Source of the DNA: Alloascoidea hylecoeti
Lineage: Eukaryota
NCBI GenBank assembly: GCA_001600815.1
Contig: BCKZ01000008.1
Span: 744,433 to 808,000 of the forward strand
DNA length: 63,568 nt
Reading direction: 5' to 3'
In this document: positions 1,003 to 58,688 of the stretch, piece by piece
Layout of the letters: each line of letters begins with the position of its first letter
Numbering within the stretch: the stretch's first letter is position 1
The notes under the pieces: generated by a model
Told to the model about the DNA's origin: nothing
The model's database searches: none
The model's input: the letters and a program-made list of their open reading frames with translations, nothing else
Program-made: the position numbers and the translations under genes

Positions 1003-2309
1003 CGGGGAAAACTAGCTGCCCATTTTTTTAACATCCCTCCAAAAATTATCTTTAGATATACATAGAATGATTTCTAGAACTCCGTTAAGCGATATTTCAG
1101 ATTAATTATAGTTCTAGAACGAGGTCGCAACCAGCTGAGAGAATTAAAAATAGCATATGAGAAAAATGGCTGAAATAAGTGGAAGGCTTAACATTGCACC
1201 TACAACTGTGCTGTTCAATGTAAATAAACCAACGTTAACAACGCTTCTGATATAACCTCCTCTAATTAAGAAGCATACAAAACCTACTGATATGGCAAGA
1301 AATCAAATTTTAAAGGTTGTAAAAGCTTCTCCCTCTAATACACTTGAGGAACAAGCTTTAAAGTTCAACATTGGAATATCAAAGACTACTAAGATCCTTT
1401 TTGTAAAAACATGACTATGGAGTAGTTTAGGCATGTAAATGATCGCATCTGAATGAGAAGAACCAAATGAATAGAATAATATTGTCTGAATAATTGGGGT
1501 GCATGTGGTCTCATGACACTTGGGATGGTGTTGTATTTAATGAATAATGTTCACTCTTTACAGGATCTGGATCTGAAAGTATACTCCACAACAGTCACAC
1601 CAGACCTTTGAATCAAAAATTATTTATAGTATAGGGAAGTTTGAGTCTGTGGGTCTTATGGTATGGGGAGGAATTTGGAAGGGAGCCCATGCTTCACTCT
1701 ATAGAGTGATTGGGGATCCTAATAGCAAAAAAAAGGGAGCAATCACACGTTCCTACATAGAACTTTTATAGGAGGCCTTTGATGATATTTATGAGTGTGT
1801 CATACTTAAGTAGGATCAGACGTATCTGTAAATCTAGAATCACGATGAATTGGGTTCCTGAAGAGGAGATAGAAGTGTTTGAGTGGCCTTATTTTTACCC
1901 TATTTGACACATGTAGAATCTCCTCAAAAAAAGTCATCACCAGGCTGGAATTAAGATTATGAGTCTTCCACAATGGTGTAGAAATGAAGAAATACATAGT
2001 GTTTATATCTCTTTCAAAATATTAGGACTCATCAGGATATCATTGATCATCTTAGTGACTTTATGCCTCGAAGAGTGGCAGCCGTTTATATAAGGGGATC
2101 ATCACTAAATACTAGGATTAAAATTTGATTTTATGTACAGGTACACTAATATAATATCTGATATCGACAGAATATTATGAGCTGCTTTAAGTACAGTTTA
2201 AAGCATTGTAAAGTATTAGTAGCTAGTCATAATATTTCTATTTGTTTTTGGAGGTGTCGGAAAAAGATGCGTAAATCGTGGTTATCCAAAATGCTAGTTT
2301 TTCCAGATC
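1003..2309 (+). mobile_element. Degenerate Tc1/mariner (IS630-Tc1) DNA transposon relic
   Basis: Broken frames give HTH-like AEISGRLNIAPTTV (~1170), WDGVVF(N)E (~1522), LMVWGGI (~1655) and VFEWP (~1875). Degenerate inverted ends: GGAAAACTAGC..CCTCCAAAAA (~1006-1045) versus TTTTTGGAGG..GCTAGTTTTTCC (~2245-2304). Confidence 0.7.
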
Positions 2310-11244: not shown

Positions 11245-12493
11245 GTGAAGATTTGTCATCTCATAAACGATTTAATCTTCAAACAATTATCACACAAAAC
11301 TTTACTCAATTGTAGAGATGTATCTAAATCATGGAAACAAGCAGCTGAATATGATGGTATATGGAAATCAAAGTTCAAAGATCAAAAATATTGGAAATAC
11401 TATAATGATGATTTGGAGACTGATTCATGGTATGAATATAAAGTGCGTTATCTTTTAGAATCAAATTGATAAATTTACAAAACATAAATGGTCATTCTAG
11501 CCAAACAGAGTGTGTTAAATTTTATAAAAACTGGATTTTAACTGGTTCAGTAGATTGTACAATTAGAATTTGGGATAGTGAAACTTTTCAATGTTTAATT
11601 ATAGGCAAACCAGATCCTAAGATTTTAAAACAATTAGCTGCACCAACTCTTGATTTTTTAAGAGATAATCTATCAGAAATCCAAATATTGGAATTAACAA
11701 AAAATTTTGATATCAAATTTCATTTGGGCAGTGTTATTTGTGTGGATATTAATGATATATATTTAATTTCTGGCTCATGGGATAGGTCATGTATAATTTG
11801 GAAATTACCTAATTTCAAACCAATAAATCATCTATATATGCCACTAAATGGTATTTTTTCAAGTCATTTTATACAACAATTATATTCTATGCTATAATTC
11901 TTATCATATAAGGATCTGAAAATCAAGTATCGATGATTTAGAAAAGCATCTACAGTACAATTTACGGTACAGTTTAGAAGGACAATATTGGAGTCATATT
12001 TGGATTAATAATGGTATAATATATAGTAAAGACGGGACATATTTAATAAGGTCTTGGAAAGTTGAAACTGGTCAAATGGTCAAAGAATTTCAATATTACC
12101 ATTTAGGGGCCATGAAAGTAAAAGATCAGTACTTATTTGCTACTCCTAACTACCAACAAATAACAGTTCGGGGTTTACAATCAAATGAAGTAATAAATGT
12201 TAGTAGATCAGGAAGGATTTGGGAAAGCAATTGCAATATTTATAGTTGATAATAAAATCATTTGTCTTGATTGTTATTGTACTATTACAATTTGGAATTT
12301 AAATGATCTAAAATTATTTAAAAAATTTAAAAAATCAAATTATCGAATCACCATTTTAAATACTTCCTGCTCAATTGATGCTGAGTCTAAAAAGATGGCT
12401 GCTTTTACTTTGGATGGTGATCTTGTTGTTTATGATTATACTAAACATTTAAGAAAAAAATACATTTATAATTTATTGAATATTGAAAATTGA
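11245..12493 (+). pseudogene. F-box/WD40 protein pseudogene, copy 1
   Basis: F-box (LIFKQLSHKTLLNCRDVSKSW) and WD repeats (GHSSQTECVKF..TGSVDCTIRIWD; ISGSWDRSCIIWK) split by frameshifts and stops. Confidence 0.85.
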
Positions 12494-13275: not shown

Positions 13276-13740
13276 ATGTCACCTAACAAGCAAATGTTAA
13301 ATTTTTAGAACCCCAAGATTGGTAAAACAGGAAATGACTGCTATACAAAAGAATTTAAAAAAGAGATTATTGTATATCGAGATTAACCACAATGGAATTT
13401 TTTATCAAGAAAATACTAAATCCCACTATATTTGGTTAGATTTATCAGGATTATCAGGTAAAATTTCAAATGGTGATCCAAAAAATATGGATCGAACTAT
13501 ACATTGTAGTTAGAAGTAGAGGTCAGCCAAGACAAGTAATAAATGAAATGCGTAGATCAATCTGATCAACTATATACTCACAATCATTGTTAATAGTCTT
13601 AAGGAATCTATCACCAAGTGGTTCTAAATTGCTTATAAGATCTTTTGTTAGAGTTACACGCTACGACGAACTGATGTCAATTAATTTCTAATAAGACTTA
13701 AAAACTTTTATTTCGAATATAAATACTTTTATTTAACGTT
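13276..13740 (+). mobile_element. Possible pogo/CENP-B-like transposase relic
   Basis: A stop-riddled frame reads YTKEFKKEII..LSRKY*IP..LEVEV, and later ITKWF..YTLRRT, loosely like the pogo tandem HTH. Weak. Confidence 0.3.
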
Positions 13741-15960
13741 GACTAAATTTCGGCCAATAATAATTCTAAATTCGTGGTTGTGCTGAGAATCTACTTTTCT
13801 GATTTACTTCTCATAACTCTTGGTTAGCCTCTACTGTACTAAGTTCCGTCGCGTTTACTTCGAAGTTTACTCTACTTAAGGCATCTGCTGCTGAGTTGGT
13901 TTTACCAGGTATATACTTAATGGTAAAATTAAATTCCGCCAGGAAGTCTATCCACCTAGCAATTCTGCTTTTATTCAGTTGCTTTTGTTGGTGAATATAT
14001 TGTAATGAATTATGGTCTGTCTGTAACACAAAGTGGTTGTCCTTTAAGTAATATTCCCACTCCTTCAGTGCAAACACTACTGCCATAAATTCTTTCTCCC
14101 TTGTTGGATAATTCAGTTCTGCTTTCTGTAGTTTCTTTGACGCGTAGCCCACTACTCCTATCAGTTTACCATCTATTGTCTTTTCCTCTAGTGTAGCCCC
14201 TAATGATATATCGCAAGCGTCTGTAGTCACTATAAATACTCTATCACCTTGTTGTGGTATTTGTGGTACTACTAAAATTGGTTCAGACGACAATTTCTGC
14301 TTTAGTTCTTCAAAAGCTATGTCGCATTCTCCGTCCCACTCTCTGGCTTTGTTCGCGAATTCTATCATTGGTTTTGCTATCTTCGAGTACTGTGCGATAA
14401 ATCTTCTGTAGTAGTTTGCTAGTCCTAGAAATGATTGTGCCTCTTTATCGCTTTTGGGTACCGGCCATTCCCTAATGGTGGCTACTTTCTTGTTATCCGG
14501 CATGATCCCGTTGCTTGTGATTTTATGTCCTAAAAAGTCTAATTCCTTCAACATAAATGCACATTTCTTCTTCTTCGCTCGTAACTTGTTGGCTCTAAGT
14601 TTCTCCAATACCAGTTTTACATGTTCTTCGTGCTCTTTCTCGTTCCTTGAGTATATCAAGATGTCATCTAAATACACTATCACAAATTTGCCTTTAAACT
14701 CTGCTAACACATCATTCATAACGTACTGAAAGGTGGCCGGGGCATTGGTTAACCCAAATGGCATTACATTCCATTCAAAATGTCCCTCTTTCGTTGTGAA
14801 GCCTGTTTTTGCTCTATCTGATTCATTTATAACAATTTGGTGATAGCCCGACATCAAATCTAACTTCGAGAATACTTTCGCACCATGTAATTGATCTAAC
14901 AGGTCATTAATTACTGGTAAAGGGTACCTATTCTTAATCGTTTGGTTGTTAAGAAGTCTATAATCAACACATAACCTCATGCTACCATCTTTTTTCTTCA
15001 CAAACAATACCGGTGCCGAATATGGGGACTGTGACCTGGATATTGACCCATTCTCCAACAGCTCTCTTAGCTGTCGTTGTAATTCTTCATTATCCTTATA
15101 TGACATTCTATAAGGAGCCCTAGCCGGTGGTTTAGACCCTTCCATTATCTCTATGTTATGATAAAACTGGTGCTGTCTTTCCGGTACTCCTTTTGGTTGT
15201 ATATTTGTCACAACGTCTTCATATCCGCTCAGGAATTTAGGTAGCTCTGGTTCTGGTTTGGTTGATTCTATTACTTCGTTCACTTCCAACGGTTCTTCGC
15301 CTATGTCTTCAACTTTTAGTTGTACTCGTCCCCAGCTATTGTGTCTAATTTCTTTCAAAAATTCTTTTACACCAAGGGTTTGGCACTTAACTGACTCAGG
15401 TTCATTACTCCTGAGGTTGGGCTCACAGGTTCTACGATTAGTGAATAGTCTGCTTATATCTTTCAAAACTTCAAATACTTTATTATTATTTTTCTTTACT
15501 TCTTTATTTAAATTTTTAACTTCTTTACTTAAAATTTTAACTTCTTTAGTCTCTTCTTTCTTTTCTATATCTTTAACTATTTCTTTTGATGTGACAAGGC
15601 TTGGTTTTCTATTTTTCATGCTACTAAAATCGCATACATTATTTTTACATATAATTTTACTTGCCATATTTTCCTTTATAATCAGGCCCTTAACTCTGGG
15701 TTCTGATTCTTCTTTTCCTTTGGCATCTTGTTTCTTTTCTAAATCAATATTTTTTCTTCCACTCGCCATTGTGGGTCTTTTTTGGTTTTTATAATTTTTT
15801 TTGGTTTTTATATTTTTAACATTTTTTTCTATTTTTTCTGCCTTGTCTTTTGCATCATTCTTTTCTCTTGTATAACTCTCTATTTTATTTAGGTCTATTC
15901 CTTTGATCTCTGGCTGTTCCATGCTTAAAATCTTCTTTGGGTCTTCATCTTTCTGTTCTT
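13596..15960 (-). repeat. Left arm of 2365-bp inverted repeat
   Basis: Reverse complement of 16928-19292; paired positions sum to 32888. Breakpoints read directly, and all paired ORF translations are identical. Confidence 0.97.
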
Positions 15961-16458
15961 TATAAATGAATGGTCTTCCTAAATATACTTGGTGGCTGAG
16001 TCCTTCTGTGACCCAGAAATCCATCTTCCAGTACCTGTTTTCATATTTTAATTCTAACTTGACCACTCCTGTTACCAGCATCTCGTTACTAGCTTGTGCT
16101 GTGTTTAGGACCCTTGGAACCGCCAACTGCCGGACTGTATTTGAGGCACCCACCAATTCTACAGCGCGAGTATCTATTAACATTGAGGAACAACCAGAAT
16201 CTATAAGGCATGGCACTATTTTACCATTAATTTGGAAGGGAATTTCCTTTAACATCATGTTCAGGGGTACTTCTTCTTCAAAATCTTGACCTAATTCTGG
16301 GGTTCCCTTTGTACTACGCACTGTGGTACTAGCTGTTGTCACTATTACATCCCTTGGTCCCAACTTCGGTATCACCCTTGGCTGGGTCGGGTTGTCTTTC
16401 GTTAACAACTGGGGGCCTTTTATACCAATATTACCGGTCCTTCTTAATATTGGTTTCC
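13811..16458 (-). CDS. Ty3/gypsy Pol: protease, RT, RNase H; stops before integrase
   Basis: PR LIDSG..LGRPF; RT RLCVDYR..LN, SKLDLMSGYHQI, MPFGLTNAPATFQ, YLDD; RH TDAC..E..L..TDH..N..ADALSR. The frame is open upstream of 16408 and overlaps the gag end in -1. Confidence 0.95.
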
Positions 16459-16927: not shown

Positions 16928-19292
16928 AAGAACAGAAAGATGAAGACCCAAAGAAGATTTTAAGCATGGAACAGCCAGAGATCAAAGGAATAGACCTAAA
17001 TAAAATAGAGAGTTATACAAGAGAAAAGAATGATGCAAAAGACAAGGCAGAAAAAATAGAAAAAAATGTTAAAAATATAAAAACCAAAAAAAATTATAAA
17101 AACCAAAAAAGACCCACAATGGCGAGTGGAAGAAAAAATATTGATTTAGAAAAGAAACAAGATGCCAAAGGAAAAGAAGAATCAGAACCCAGAGTTAAGG
17201 GCCTGATTATAAAGGAAAATATGGCAAGTAAAATTATATGTAAAAATAATGTATGCGATTTTAGTAGCATGAAAAATAGAAAACCAAGCCTTGTCACATC
17301 AAAAGAAATAGTTAAAGATATAGAAAAGAAAGAAGAGACTAAAGAAGTTAAAATTTTAAGTAAAGAAGTTAAAAATTTAAATAAAGAAGTAAAGAAAAAT
17401 AATAATAAAGTATTTGAAGTTTTGAAAGATATAAGCAGACTATTCACTAATCGTAGAACCTGTGAGCCCAACCTCAGGAGTAATGAACCTGAGTCAGTTA
17501 AGTGCCAAACCCTTGGTGTAAAAGAATTTTTGAAAGAAATTAGACACAATAGCTGGGGACGAGTACAACTAAAAGTTGAAGACATAGGCGAAGAACCGTT
17601 GGAAGTGAACGAAGTAATAGAATCAACCAAACCAGAACCAGAGCTACCTAAATTCCTGAGCGGATATGAAGACGTTGTGACAAATATACAACCAAAAGGA
17701 GTACCGGAAAGACAGCACCAGTTTTATCATAACATAGAGATAATGGAAGGGTCTAAACCACCGGCTAGGGCTCCTTATAGAATGTCATATAAGGATAATG
17801 AAGAATTACAACGACAGCTAAGAGAGCTGTTGGAGAATGGGTCAATATCCAGGTCACAGTCCCCATATTCGGCACCGGTATTGTTTGTGAAGAAAAAAGA
17901 TGGTAGCATGAGGTTATGTGTTGATTATAGACTTCTTAACAACCAAACGATTAAGAATAGGTACCCTTTACCAGTAATTAATGACCTGTTAGATCAATTA
18001 CATGGTGCGAAAGTATTCTCGAAGTTAGATTTGATGTCGGGCTATCACCAAATTGTTATAAATGAATCAGATAGAGCAAAAACAGGCTTCACAACGAAAG
18101 AGGGACATTTTGAATGGAATGTAATGCCATTTGGGTTAACCAATGCCCCGGCCACCTTTCAGTACGTTATGAATGATGTGTTAGCAGAGTTTAAAGGCAA
18201 ATTTGTGATAGTGTATTTAGATGACATCTTGATATACTCAAGGAACGAGAAAGAGCACGAAGAACATGTAAAACTGGTATTGGAGAAACTTAGAGCCAAC
18301 AAGTTACGAGCGAAGAAGAAGAAATGTGCATTTATGTTGAAGGAATTAGACTTTTTAGGACATAAAATCACAAGCAACGGGATCATGCCGGATAACAAGA
18401 AAGTAGCCACCATTAGGGAATGGCCGGTACCCAAAAGCGATAAAGAGGCACAATCATTTCTAGGACTAGCAAACTACTACAGAAGATTTATCGCACAGTA
18501 CTCGAAGATAGCAAAACCAATGATAGAATTCGCGAACAAAGCCAGAGAGTGGGACGGAGAATGCGACATAGCTTTTGAAGAACTAAAGCAGAAATTGTCG
18601 TCTGAACCAATTTTAGTAGTACCACAAATACCACAACAAGGTGATAGAGTATTTATAGTGACTACAGACGCTTGCGATATATCATTAGGGGCTACACTAG
18701 AGGAAAAGACAATAGATGGTAAACTGATAGGAGTAGTGGGCTACGCGTCAAAGAAACTACAGAAAGCAGAACTGAATTATCCAACAAGGGAGAAAGAATT
18801 TATGGCAGTAGTGTTTGCACTGAAGGAGTGGGAATATTACTTAAAGGACAACCACTTTGTGTTACAGACAGACCATAATTCATTACAATATATTCACCAA
18901 CAAAAGCAACTGAATAAAAGCAGAATTGCTAGGTGGATAGACTTCCTGGCGGAATTTAATTTTACCATTAAGTATATACCTGGTAAAACCAACTCAGCAG
19001 CAGATGCCTTAAGTAGAGTAAACTTCGAAGTAAACGCGACGGAACTTAGTACAGTAGAGGCTAACCAAGAGTTATGAGAAGTAAATCAGAAAAGTAGATT
19101 CTCAGCACAACCACGAATTTAGAATTATTATTGGCCGAAATTTAGTCAACGTTAAATAAAAGTATTTATATTCGAAATAAAAGTTTTTAAGTCTTATTAG
19201 AAATTAATTGACATCAGTTCGTCGTAGCGTGTAACTCTAACAAAAGATCTTATAAGCAATTTAGAACCACTTGGTGATAGATTCCTTAAGAC
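16928..19292 (+). repeat. Right arm of 2365-bp inverted repeat
   Basis: Mirror copy of 13596-15960. Confidence 0.97.
16966..19077 (+). CDS. 703-aa ORF: K/E-rich linker plus Ty3/gypsy RT-RNase H (no Gag, PR or IN)
   Basis: ATG-initiated and identical to the last 703 aa of the minus-strand Pol. Expression unknown. Confidence 0.7.
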   Translation: MEQPEIKGIDLNKIESYTREKNDAKDKAEKIEKNVKNIKTKKNYKNQKRPTMASGRKNIDLEKKQDAKGKEESEPRVKGLIIKENMASKIICKNNVCDFSSMKNRKPSLVTSKEIVKDIEKKEETKEVKILSKEVKNLNKEVKKNNNKVFEVLKDISRLFTNRRTCEPNLRSNEPESVKCQTLGVKEFLKEIRHNSWGRVQLKVEDIGEEPLEVNEVIESTKPEPELPKFLSGYEDVVTNIQPKGVPERQHQFYHNIEIMEGSKPPARAPYRMSYKDNEELQRQLRELLENGSISRSQSPYSAPVLFVKKKDGSMRLCVDYRLLNNQTIKNRYPLPVINDLLDQLHGAKVFSKLDLMSGYHQIVINESDRAKTGFTTKEGHFEWNVMPFGLTNAPATFQYVMNDVLAEFKGKFVIVYLDDILIYSRNEKEHEEHVKLVLEKLRANKLRAKKKKCAFMLKELDFLGHKITSNGIMPDNKKVATIREWPVPKSDKEAQSFLGLANYYRRFIAQYSKIAKPMIEFANKAREWDGECDIAFEELKQKLSSEPILVVPQIPQQGDRVFIVTTDACDISLGATLEEKTIDGKLIGVVGYASKKLQKAELNYPTREKEFMAVVFALKEWEYYLKDNHFVLQTDHNSLQYIHQQKQLNKSRIARWIDFLAEFNFTIKYIPGKTNSAADALSRVNFEVNATELSTVEANQEL

Positions 19293-27149: not shown

Positions 27150-28200
27150 AACATAACACCACATTATTAATTTCATTTTAATGATGAATAAAGCTTATAA
27201 TAATTTTTGAGACAGGAAAGTAACAGCTTTTATTTTTTTCAAAACTTACACCAGCCTATATATATTGTAAGGTCATAAATTTTGTTGGAAGTTCAAACTT
27301 AAAATCTTATTATGATCCATTAATGTGATGTTTGAATTTAAATTCCCAATGATGAGAATAATTTCGTATGTTTAGCCGATGTATAAAAGATCCAGGATTT
27401 TCTTTGTTTATCTTTGCTAACAATTCCCACCATGTTTTCCAATTTTTTGGATCTTTATATTGAATCCGATGTTCCCAATTTGGTGTAAAAGGGACCAATG
27501 TGCTACTATAACGAGCGGCTTCCTGTCTAAATATCGTCATTTGTAAGTCCTGATCATCTTTGGTCTGTACATTTTGTATAACTAGGGGAACTCTTTCGGA
27601 ACATATTTTGTATGGTGTATTTACATCTAGGAGGGGTATCAATGTATTTGCTGACTTTGATTGTTTAAAATTTATGGAATCAATGTAACATTTTAGATAT
27701 TGTTCCTATCTATTATTTTCATTGAGTGTTCCTTTTTCCTTGAACGTATTTCTTTTACCGCCTTTTGTCTGTTATTTCCTTCAATAGCATAACCGCTTAA
27801 AAAGTGATACCAATTGTAATCAAAATTATGATTTTTTAAAAGTGTGAATACTTTTCCATTTCTATTTGACATTGAACTTTTCACATCTAGCTTATGGCCT
27901 CGCTCGCCTATAAATTACAAATCTAGACTCCGACACAAAAAGTAGGTCCAGTACCCATGACGCATGGATCTCTTGGTAATGTGCTTCAAGATTTAACAAA
28001 CCAAAACTAACCTCCTTTTTCAAGGAGCAATTGCAATATCGCTGGTGATATAAATAATTTTGGATTAGCAATTTAGTAACTAATCTCAATATTTGATCTA
28101 TTTGAGTTTTTGCAAGTGGCCAAAACTCGACCAAATAATTGAGTTTGGTGAATATAAAGGTATTGATTGCTTTTCTCAAACCATGGAACAAAAATTGAAA
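27150..28200 (-). mobile_element. 5'-truncated, degenerate L1-like LINE ORF2 (post-RT region)
   Basis: FHGLRKAINTFIFTKLNY..P..K..FGLLNL..HASWV matches the Gr..insl..skl.Y...pK..GGlGl....W block after non-LTR RT. Later W..W..L and WCKF (zinc-knuckle remnant); several stops and frameshifts. Confidence 0.7.
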
Positions 28201-28501
28201 TTAGGACCGAGGAGGATAACAAATAAATAAGAGCTTACACATTGTATTTTTTAAAATCCGTTAGAGATGAATGTGCATTTCCACATAAAACAACCACATT
28301 TCATCGTGAATCAGCTTTCCATAACCAACCTCATTATCGCGCACATTTTTTCCAGTGGCCATTAAGGCTCTATCTTAAACTTCTATATCTATAAATACTA
28401 TATTTATAACAACCAAAAAATAGCGAAAATAACAAAAAAACCTGTTGCACAAGCAGCACCTGCTCGATAAAATCAGGATAGAAGTAAACAAAAATGTTGG
28501 A

Positions 28502-28573
28502 GGGCCGAGCTGGGAATTGAACCCAGGGCCACTCGCACCCAAAGCGAGTATCATACCACTAGACCACACGGCC
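28502..28573 (-). tRNA. tRNA-Pro(UGG), intronless
   Basis: GGCCGTGTGGTCTAGTGGTATGATACTCGCTTTGGGTGCGAGTGGCCCTGGGTTCAATTCCCAGCTCGGCCC folds as a cloverleaf with A and B boxes. Confidence 0.97.
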
Positions 28574-28620: not shown

Positions 28621-28757
28621 ATATATAGTAATCTACATAGCTTCTATATGAAAAGTTAAAAAAAAAAAAAAAAAGATTTCCTCAATTTAATAATTTTTAG
28701 CTAGAATAATTCAATTATTTTAATCAGAAATTATATGTAAAGTTAAAAAAAAAAAAA
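28621..28757 (+). repeat. Two tandem poly(A)-tailed repeat units upstream of tRNA-Pro
   Basis: Both end in TATATG(A/T)AAAGTT followed by A17 and A13; related to 29379-29458 and 58081-58167. Confidence 0.75.
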
Positions 28758-29198
28758 CTTTATGGGCTATTTAAAGTAACGTATACTTAATAGCATTTTG
28801 CAAATTGATAAATACAAGTGATTTGGTATATTTTAGCACAAATTTTTAAAAAAAGACATGTGTGATTAATATAAAGAATGCATTAAATATTTGAAGTAAT
28901 ATAGCGCTCCGACGAGTTAGCAACTCAGCACACTCGATACCTAGCTAGCGCTATACCACAACATTGCAATTGCAATTGCTCTAGATCTGTTTCATTAATT
29001 ATAATTATGTATAATATTCACAAATTATAAAACCAGCATCAAGGATAAACTATTATAAATACTATTATTAAAATATTCTTAATTTCATTATATTTTGATA
29101 ATATTTATTTTATATTTTCTCTGTAGATTGTTCTGTAGTGTGAATTTTCTTAAATATTTTTTCTGGATTTTCAACTGGAATATGGTCTTTCGATATTC

Positions 29199-29458
29199 AT
29201 AGTAATCTACATAAGTCTGAAAAAGTTTGGGTGGGTCAAAATGAGGAAGAGATGACCAAAAAAATCTAGGAAAACTTCATTTAATAATGAAAATTTTGCA
29301 GAAGAATTGAAATTCCCAGAGTTTTTAAAAGAAAAGTTCGAAATGTGGTTGGAGAAGCTAAAAACAGATAGTATGGGTGATTTCCGCAATTAAATAGTTT
29401 CTACAAGTAGCTAGAAATTTTAATTGGAACTTATATGTAAAGTTAAAAATAAAAAAAA
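29199..29458 (+). repeat. Longer copy of the same poly(A)-tailed repeat, with an ORF remnant
   Basis: ..EELKFPEFLKEKFEMWLEKLKTDSMGDFRN* then ATAGTTTCTA..TTTAATTGGAA..TATATGTAAAGTT and an A-rich tail. Confidence 0.6.
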
Positions 29459-53544: not shown

Positions 53545-54790
53545 GTTTCAAAGTATAAACAACAGCCATTTTTTCCGAGCCAGCGATCAATTGAATATTT
53601 ACAAGATTCAATAAAAGTCATCATTGGAAAATCTGGATTTTTAAACTTGTTAAATAATTTAAGGTCATTTAAATTCCAAATTCTGATAGCAACACCAACA
53701 CAAATGATTTTATTATCAACTATAATTAATGCAAGTACCTCTTCAAATCCTTTATTGTCTGGTATAATATTTATTAATTTATTTGATTATAAGTCCCAAA
53801 TTGTTATTTGGTTGTCGTAAATAGTAGCAAATAAGTTTTGATCCCTTGTTGCCATGATCCCTAGTTGATTTTCTTGATTTTCTTGGATCATTTGACCAGT
53901 TCCAATATTCCAGGATTTTATTACATGTATTTCATCAAATTGATGACTATATATAATATCATTATTAATGGAAATATCATACCAATGTTCTCCTTTTAAA
54001 CTGTACTGTAAATGGAACAGTAGTTGATTTTCTAAATTATCGAGACTTGATTTCCAAACTCCTATATATTCACCACTAAAACATACAATATAATCGTTGT
54101 ATAAAGCGACACCCATTATAATTGAATAAATAACACCTAGTAACATTTTCAAACGCTTTATTGGTTTAAAATTTGGTAATTTCCAAATTATATAAAACTC
54201 ATCTAATGAACCAGAAACCAAACATTTATCATTAATATCAATACATCTAACATCATCCAAAAAAATGTGATATCAAATCTTTTTGTTAATTCCAATAATT
54301 GTTGTTGTGATCGATTATCTCTTAAAGCATCAAGAATTTGTACCCCTAATTGTCTTAAAATCTCAGGATCTGGTTCACCTATAACTCTTAAACACTGAAA
54401 TCTTTTGGTGCTATCTAAAATTCTAATTGTACAATCTACTGAACCAGTTAATACCCAGTTCTTATAAAATTTAACACAATCTGTTTTGTCAGAATGACCA
54501 CTTAATATGTGTTCTGTGAATTTATCATCTCTCTAAAAAATAACGCTTTTTTTATAACTTATACCATGAATCAGTTTCTGCATCATCATTATAGTATTTC
54601 CAATCTTTTTGATCTTTAAATTTTGATTTCCATACATCATCATCATCAGCTACTTGTTTCCATGTTTTAAATACTTCTCTACAATTAAGTAAAGTTTTTG
54701 ATGATAATTGTTTGAAGATTAAATCATTTATTTCATCAGGGAAATAATCAACAAAATCGATTCTAGTCTCAAGACACACTGTTGCTTACG
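53545..54790 (-). pseudogene. F-box/WD40 protein pseudogene, copy 2 (paralogue of 11245-12493)
   Basis: DFVDYFPDEINDLIFKQLSSKTLLNCREVFKTW..WKYYNDD..DSWY; GHSDKTDCVKFYKNW; VSGSLD..IIWKLPNFKPI; multiple frameshifts. Confidence 0.87.
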
Positions 54791-57839: not shown

Positions 57840-57933
57840 CGACAGACGCAGGATTCGAACCTACGCGGGCAAAGCCCAATTGATAACACATAAGTATTCA
57901 AGTCAATCTCCTTAACCGCTCGGACAGCCTGTC
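57840..57933 (-). tRNA. tRNA-Ser(UGA) with 12-nt intron (57896-57885)
   Basis: GACAGGCTGTCCGAGCGGTTAAGGAGATTGACTTGAA[TACTTATGTGTT]ATCAATTGGGCTTTGCCCGCGTAGGTTCGAATCCTGCGTCTGTCG; long variable arm, G73, T-run terminator. Confidence 0.95.
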
Positions 57934-58080
57934 TAACATGCCGAATATAGAGTAAGCTACTAACTACTTAATAACTTACAATAGATGCAACTGGCGGTGA
58001 ATCAGATAAGAAGGGAAGAAAGAAGAGTGTCAAGAATACACAAAAATAAGAAGAATAGAAAGAGAGGTTTTTATTTCACT

Positions 58081-58167
58081 ATATATAGTAGAGATTTCCT
58101 CAGAATTTACATAGTTTCTAGTTATATAATTTAATTGGAAAATATATGAAAAGTTAAAAAAAAAAAA
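58081..58167 (+). repeat. Poly(A)-tailed repeat upstream of tRNA-Ser
   Basis: ATATATAGTA GAGATTTCCTCA..TACATAGTTTCTA..TTTAATTGGAA..TATATGAAAAGTT followed by A12. Confidence 0.75.
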
Positions 58168-58688
58168 GATACAGACGATCAAGATCTAAACAGGAAAATG
58201 TATTCAAGCTAATCCCCCTCCCTATTTAAAAGTGGGATTTATCTTATGTTTATATAGATAAATCCAAAAGCTATTAATAGAAAAGTCTTAGAAGTAATAA
58301 AGAGATACAATGTATCCCAGCAATGAGGTAATGAGCTCAAGAACTGTGGCATGTGTTTCCGAACCAATATAAAATGCATCCAAGAAATGTTAAATGTACT
58401 CGCGAAATGATAACCAGAGGAACAACCAAAATAATGACGATGTCATGATTATTCCTTTACACCGAAACTCAACTAATTGGCTATGATGTAGACGTATTAT
58501 AAATAAGCATCTTCCCAAATCAACTCATTGAATTTATATTGATTTAACTGTAAGACCCTTATAAGTACAATGTTTTTTGTCTATAACAATTGTTTTCAAA
58601 GTCGAACAAACGGAGACAAGAAACATCAACGATTGTTACTGGGTAAAAAGAAACAGAAATATCAGTAAAGAAATCGGAAAGTTCGAAT

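Follow-up and report, generated by a model that had tools for sequence, protein, structure and literature searches.

Non-LTR retrotransposons that insert beside genes transcribed by RNA polymerase (Pol) III are listed, in the available sections of a 2018 review, for Dictyostelium and Polysphondylium only, and the same sections place insertion downstream of tRNA genes in dictyostelid genomes only, not in S. cerevisiae (PMC5911963). The TRE5 elements of Dictyostelium discoideum (TRE5-A/DRE, -B and -C) and NLTR-B of Polysphondylium pallidum are A-tailed L1-type elements situated upstream of tRNA genes with their 5' end towards the tRNA 5' end, and they make use of 5S genes, are 5' truncated and are associated with target-site deletions (PMC5911963, PMC3159450, PMC5006619), all features that recur in the element described here as family A. 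The TRE5-A ORF1 protein contacts TBP, Brf1 and Bdp1, and targeting requires the B box (PMC5911963). Distances given in the accessible text of these sources are 40-54 bp for TRE5 and 39-64 bp for NLTR-B, as against mostly 50-79 bp for family A. Family A further differs from TRE5 in its yeast-like fungal host, in its use of RNase P and SRP RNA genes, in that no intact copy was seen and in a reverse transcriptase (RT) that groups with budding-yeast L1 proteins, and it is not classed here as a TRE. The TRE3 elements of D. discoideum (TRE3-A to -D) lie downstream of tRNA genes and share their orientation, at 40-150 bp (PMC5911963, sections available), an arrangement shared by two further families described below, B and C, which are however closer to the gene (mostly ~20-75 bp) and represent two distinct lineages.

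Among yeast elements, Zorro1-3 of Candida albicans and Ylli of Yarrowia lipolytica resemble family A in being L1-clade elements with A tails and many 5'-truncated copies; both have an APE-RT ORF2, and target-site duplications were not identified for Ylli in the portion of the source available (PMC5014426). Unlike family A, Zorro3 has poly(A) as its target and Zorro1/2 occupy subtelomeric positions (PMC7175516, available portion), whilst the available portion of PMC5014426 reports no tRNA association for Ylli. Targeting of Pol III genes in yeasts is familiar from Ty3 and Ty1 of Saccharomyces cerevisiae, Tyl3/Tyl6, Tca8 and Tj1, but these are elements with LTRs and an integrase. Solo-LTR-like repeats present in the genome analyzed here are located 11-15 bp upstream of tRNA genes, similar to the Ty3-type distance of 15-17 bp (PMC5014426, available portion), such that family A in front of the gene, families B and C behind it and LTR-like repeats at the start site mirror the layout of TRE5, TRE3 and DGLT-A. 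No fungal LINE with a tRNA-flank habit was found in the literature searched, subscription papers and Repbase reports being mostly beyond the scope of that search.

The window, meaning the whole stretch of DNA analyzed, comprises 63,568 nt of Alloascoidea hylecoeti (contig BCKZ01000008.1, 744,433 to 808,000; genome 24.8 Mb in 136 contigs), and its relevant features are collected in Table 1. The host resembles a budding yeast: MCM4 encoded in the window scored 1140 bits against a 933-aa MCM4 chain (S. cerevisiae) and 677 against 863-aa chains (human), and the SRP RNA of the genome is of fungal type. Five sequencing runs contain all or part of the stretch, with no RNA run listed among them. An earlier note on this DNA had described four related units with a common TATATG(A/T)AAAGTT end and an A tail, each upstream of a tRNA gene and absent from the rest of the window. 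Searching the window located this end at 28645, 28732, 29432 and 58143, all on the + strand, with no further copy at up to one mismatch; the A tails of units 1 to 4 measured 17, 13, 5+T+8 and 12 nt. Since both tRNA genes are on the - strand, every unit is upstream and head-to-head with its gene, as had been claimed. Shuffled windows contained a mean of 1.1 end-motif matches and reached four in 5 of 100 shuffles, so that the window count taken alone is weak evidence.

Table 1. Coordinates of the tRNA genes and repeat elements in the window
Feature	Position	Strand	Evidence
tRNA-Pro(TGG), target gene	28502-28573	-	ARAGORN; Rfam RF00005, 59 bits
Ser(TGA) tRNA with intron, target gene	57840-57933	-	Rfam RF00005, 41 bits; ARAGORN intron mode
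Unit 1, 3' terminus of a family-A LINE, very short, A17 tail	28621-28674	+	End motif, tail
Unit 2, diverged family-A 3' end, TATATGTAAAGTT type, A13 tail	28675-28757	+	Reference alignment
Unit 3, diverged family-A 3' end, A tail interrupted	29379-29458	+	Reference alignment
Unit 4, young family-A LINE 3' end, A12 tail	58009-58167	+	Match to 1.1-kb copy L041
Solo-LTR-like repeat, left part	57946-58008		Begins 12 bp upstream of Ser(TGA) tRNA
Solo-LTR-like repeat, right part, cut off by unit 4	58168-58461		Alignment to other copies
Family-B LINE 3' end behind tRNA-Pro, co-oriented	28346-28448	-	84-93% to other B copies
Broken ORF2 piece of a family-C LINE, co-oriented with tRNA-Pro and behind it	~27313-28200	-	ORF2 profile

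The four units differ in how much of family A they retain, and several of their boundaries required revision. Only 28645-28665 of unit 1 (21 nt, 100%) aligns to the family-A reference copy; its 5' boundary is uncertain between 28621 and 28645, and the gap of ~47 bp to tRNA-Pro reported previously holds with one boundary (47-50 bp) and becomes 71 bp with the other. Unit 2 is stacked immediately behind unit 1 and matches the reference at 74% over 82 nt (E 1e-8), and unit 3, ~800 bp from tRNA-Pro, matches it at 74% over 77 nt. The piece at 29199 that had been counted as part of unit 3 is a 14-nt word common to unit 1 and does not align to unit 3. Unit 4 matches the 1.1-kb copy L041 at 98.7% over 158 nt and by this alignment is longer than the 58081-58167 first assigned to it. 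Its 5' end lies 72-75 bp from the Ser(TGA) tRNA gene, where it splits a solo-LTR-like repeat, and comparison with an uninterrupted LTR copy identifies the AGATA on either side (58004-58008 and 58167-58171) as a target-site duplication. Of the sequence blocks said to be common to the units, GATTTCC is present in units 2-4, at the start of units 2 and 3 and internally in unit 4, whilst ATAGTTTCTA and TTTAATTGGAA are confined to units 3 and 4. The first inventory of the window also missed families B and C on the 3' side of tRNA-Pro: the family-B end, recovered by a family-B pattern search (C8:772786), starts 54 bp behind the gene, and the family-C fragment covers ORF2 profile positions 777-1039 (E 2e-12) and is 88-96% identical to other C copies.

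A 17-nt family-A end occurred 84 times in the genome, against none for the reversed control, and all 84 ends carry 4-18 uninterrupted A residues at the common 3' end and lack LTRs. The extent of 5' truncation varies, with 58 copies aligning over 19-987 nt to one 1.1-kb reference and nested truncations ranging from 19 to over 1,900 nt, and a more diverged TATATGTAAAGTT type is included in the family. The 1.1-kb reference contains a 262-residue open frame ending C-x2-C-x8-H-x4-C, to which 139 genomic matches were found; matches to Pfam zf-RVT were weak (E 0.0016 and 0.022) and a Pfam search with the 262-residue frame itself gave none. Longer copies are colinear into ORF2 and the furthest reach the RT (profile position 525), for which human LINE-1 ORF2p ranked first among solved structures (E 2e-5). 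These data identify the window units as 5'-truncated 3' ends of an L1-clade LINE. The earlier reading of a LINE or SINE is thus upheld for the LINE and rejected for the SINE, the longer copies entering ORF2 rather than a common RNA-derived head; an origin-of-replication or centromere motif was also considered, and was dropped after the link to ORF2 was found. Extension of the longest copies, which had been expected to lead to an APE-RT ORF2, arrived at the RT, and in genome profile searches no family-A copy reached the endonuclease or ORF1; two APE fragments lie in family-A orientation but could not be joined to the family. Nor was a family-A 5' end recovered to set beside the modular A/B/C untranslated regions of TRE5. 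The LINE APE pieces were located with the ORF2 of a relative and a local profile, and none of the 12 genomic matches to Pfam APE PF03372 falls at their sites. All copies of families A, B and C that were seen are broken, with no intact ORF2 in any of them.

The placement of family A was assessed first from the element and then from the gene. A divergent tRNA gene was found on the element's 5' side within 2 kb for 72 of the 84 ends and within 1 kb for 65, whereas a same-strand tRNA gene upstream was seen for none within 1 kb and two within 2 kb, figures to be read with sequence coverage of only about 1.5 kb on the 5' side of ~21 ends. Chance would account for 1.0-2.6 of the 72 given an assumed range of 300-780 tRNA genes, and random placement, an outcome that the earlier note had set against its own interpretation, is not what the genome contains. 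Two of the remaining 12 ends face the RNase P RNA gene (gap 96 bp) and the SRP RNA gene (47 bp), the latter of fungal type; a further two lie on the upstream side of a tRNA gene in flipped orientation, one is on the downstream side of such a gene, and one is opposite a decayed tRNA-like stretch that includes a B box. At the other six no Pol III gene was found with Rfam, a weak C/D snoRNA-like match beside one of them not being counted. The gene-first sample consisted of 61 tRNA genes chosen blind to the element (Rfam scored 63 of 1,957 rough candidates, two of which were excluded as they were on tiny, presumed mitochondrial contigs). Within 1 kb of these genes family A was upstream and opposite at 39, upstream in the same orientation at none, downstream and opposite at none and downstream in the same orientation at two. 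Fourteen arbitrary 10-kb control stretches (140 kb) held no tRNA gene, one weak family-C match and one family-A match, and the latter was upstream of a decayed 5S gene.

Other Pol III genes gave a similar picture in part. Among five 5S matches, an intact gene has a divergent family-A copy 87 bp upstream, a second is directly joined at its 5' end by a family-A copy of like orientation, a third lies between an unassigned RT fragment on its upstream side and family C on its downstream side, and two have no element beside them; none of three U6 matches has a family-A copy of its own upstream. Intact and decayed 5S rRNA genes are scattered across several contigs, and two of the three U6 copies are diverged (5S and U6 loci at L181-L185, L170, L129 and L330). 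Because RNase P RNA, SRP RNA and 5S genes carry copies too, the term Pol III-targeted fits better than tRNA-targeted. Upstream-opposite family A was present at 110 of 147 Pol III genes, a set biased towards element loci, the distance to the nearest copy being 50-79 bp for 63 genes and 200-499 bp for 22, with a mode at ~59-62 bp. Genome-wide distance and orientation thus bear out the arrangement first noticed in the window, family A lying mostly 50-79 bp upstream of Pol III genes and opposite to them, as judged from existing copies, which have passed selection. Targeted insertion of a LINE is very probably the correct description of this pattern.

Families B and C occupy the other flank. The exact 3' motif of family B occurs 36 times in the genome against none for the control, with A tails present, and 35 of the 36 ends follow a tRNA gene of the same strand at up to 5.5 kb, 29 of them at up to 1 kb. 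In the 61-gene sample B or C was downstream in the same orientation at 26 genes, downstream and opposite at four and upstream at two; the proximal ends cluster ~20-75 bp behind the gene (48 of 67 between 19 and 73). Both A and B/C were found at 18 of the 61 genes. Two family-B copies start right behind tRNA genes and retain ORF1-like, APE, RT and CCHC parts, all broken; a family-B APE with an upstream ORF1-like region is present at L091, L121 and L199, and L122 has an ORF1 with a zinc knuckle together with an APE and is likely family C. LINE-1 ORF2p was the top match to the family-B RT among solved structures (E 1e-10). Word-based protein searches with a 449-aa family-B piece returned no match, whereas a full HMMER search succeeded. 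B and C are separate L1 lineages that lie on the 3' side of the genes and are co-oriented with them.

The insertion sites of family A can be read most directly where it interrupts another repeat. A solo-LTR-like repeat, ~390 bp when uninterrupted and assigned to LTRs from its TG start and position, begins 11-15 bp upstream of many tRNA genes. At least three such families with a TG start, seen in both orientations, begin 11-15 bp upstream of tRNA genes; one of them flanks a long Ty3-like frame beside tRNA-Ile (L058), and they constitute a third tRNA-targeting system within the same genome. Five family-A insertions interrupt the LTR-like repeat, each at a different base but all ~52-76 bp from the tRNA; set against an uninterrupted copy, the junctions comprise the AGATA duplication of unit 4, a GGCG duplication, one flush junction, one loss of 2 bp and a fifth, degraded junction. 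Over all junctions, target-site duplications of at least 5 nt were found in 17 of 58 pairs compared to 8.2 expected (permutation p 0.026), and none was 8 nt or longer. When the 35 spacers between tRNA gene and element were compared, the four top-scoring pairs were spacers containing the LTR-like repeat and all others scored 15 or less, so the copies do not derive from duplicated tRNA flanks, a possibility raised in the earlier note. The insertion site of family A is set by position and not by target sequence. In L041 the sequence at ~1010-1050 (-), past the youngest-looking family-A tail, resembles the 5' part of a tRNA-Ser gene.

Yeast tRNA, 5S, RNase P and SRP RNA genes have TFIIIC, TFIIIB and Pol III in common, and the TFIIIB footprint extends ~40 bp before the start site. 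The best explanation for the head-to-head arrangement, and a probable one, is that family A reaches Pol III genes through a tether to the Pol III machinery, either TFIIIB or Pol III. In such a scheme the family-A RNA-protein complex would be held by TFIIIB or by Pol III itself, the APE-RT ORF2 protein would nick DNA just outside the TFIIIB footprint, and reverse transcription would be primed from the poly(A) tail and mostly end early, giving short tails. Insertion would leave 0-7 bp duplications or small deletions, and each new copy would arrive at the same distance, shifting older copies outward. B and C would be guided from the 3' side, probably by TFIIIC or the terminating polymerase. That a protein tether is the cause of the targeting is suggested by analogy with TRE5-A and Ty3, and on balance seems the likelier case. 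Without a tether, a LINE could simply enter the open, nucleosome-free DNA beside TFIIIB and TFIIIC, with selection clearing insertions elsewhere. Such an account would suit the lack of a common sequence among family-A targets, an insertion window ~30 bp wide rather than a single base, the occupation of the same flanks by several unrelated element families and the fact that the tether contact is itself an analogy. Open chromatin, however, poorly explains the strict orientation (39 versus 0), the presence of A on the 5' side and B/C on the 3' side of the same genes, or the finding that 140 kb of control DNA holds a sole family-A match and that this lies beside a 5S remnant, and we consider the tetherless account unlikely.

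Where at least two family-A pieces are stacked in front of a gene, the proximal piece was nearer to the young reference in 34 of 39 stacks (Wilcoxon p 2e-6), with mean identities of 89% for proximal and 77% for distal pieces, identity to a single reference serving as a proxy for age only. This order is consistent with repeated insertion at a fixed distance and not with growth at old A tails. It thereby bears on another alternative, namely that family A behaves like Zorro3 and inserts into poly(A) tracts or old tails, the stacks growing from chance seeds near tRNA genes. Family A does group with budding-yeast L1 proteins, poly(A) is the Zorro3 target (PMC7175516, available portion), stacks are common and some copies, unit 2 among them, directly follow an A tail. 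The Zorro3-type hallmark is a poly(A) tract on both sides, whereas most tRNA-proximal 5' junctions of family A abut mixed sequence; younger pieces lie nearer the tRNA, the reverse of tail growth, and seeds would be required at 39 of 61 tRNA genes. A pile-up of this kind is already largely refuted and we regard it as highly improbable. Least credible of all, and hardly worth retaining, is the proposal that the units are LTR segments, a SINE, tRNA-flank duplicates or a cis-acting motif (an origin or a tract that excludes nucleosomes), which draws on window units that are short, AT-rich and non-coding with a count marginal against shuffles, yet is contradicted by A tails, by 5' ends that differ between copies, by longer copies colinear into an ORF2 with a CCHC finger and RT, by interruption of the LTR-like repeat and by spacers that are unrelated save in the LTR-like repeat cases. 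Tethered insertion of a LINE at Pol III genes accordingly remains the preferred reading of family A.

The nearest proteins to these elements are APE-RT-zf ORF2s of ~1,170-1,200 aa at 28-34% identity, the named ones including Microbotryum, and identity between A, B and C over the RT region is 21-34%. In trees all three families are placed with APE-RT ORF2 proteins and separated from another RT of the genome. A and C group with ORF2s of Candida pseudojiufengensis, Candidozyma haemuli, [Candida] subhashii and Wickerhamomyces pijperi (FastTree 0.976; SH-aLRT 91 and 98, quick trees), and family B is outside the budding-yeast group holding A and C; these placements are provisional owing to long branches and the broken state of the sequences themselves. 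Constraining families to one clade gave AU p values of 0.205 for A+B+C, 0.38 for B+C and 0.50 for A+C (quick tree, LG+G4), values that neither reject a common origin of the three families nor establish it. Since family A groups with budding-yeast L1 proteins, in trees made up without any TRE, Zorro or Ylli sequence, its resemblance to TRE5 is likely to be convergence. No tRNA gene was found in 493 kb of metagenome sequence covering 80 generic L1-like loci (22-32% identity), a weak control as many of these contigs break off near the element. RT fragments from another non-LTR lineage, grouping away from A-C, were seen at L053:5142-5612 and L208, with no tRNA gene in the stretches fetched around them.

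Three deeply diverged L1 lineages together with Ty3-like LTRs could amount to a full independent replay of the TRE5, TRE3 and DGLT-A arrangement, and Pol III targeting may perhaps be old in the wider fungal L1 clade; we put this forward tentatively, as a somewhat doubtful extension. An old and overlooked fungal L1 habit is conceivable because ORF2 proteins of Microbotryum are among the closest named relatives. A fungal case with both flanks in use indicates that LINEs, whose insertion proceeds by target-primed reverse transcription and requires no integrase, have repeatedly come upon Pol III genes as safe sites, and it makes the steering of an L1-type machine to a position and an orientation by a host transcription complex testable. 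Zorro3 is functional in S. cerevisiae (PMC7175516, available portion), and as yeast L1 elements work in that host an intact relative of these families could be tackled by yeast genetics. Such a relative might also be of use as a site-directed insertion tool, although the copies found here are all broken.

Several other repeats were observed in the genome. Window positions 13596-15960 and 16928-19292 form a perfect 2,365-bp inverted repeat consisting of two facing Ty3/gypsy pol pieces (RT-RNase H) with ORFs at 13811-16258 (-) and 16966-19077 (+), which may be genuine or a product of the assembly; a facing Ty3/gypsy-like pair is also present at C10:473171/474050. A 1.2-kb inverted repeat pair with 76% identity is located at 11263-12412 and 53549-54731 of the window, with related pieces at other loci. 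Small contigs (C53, C63-C67, C72, C76, C80, C125 and C133) carry RT matches with in-frame TGA in unusual number, and these are likely mitochondrial group II intron RTs.
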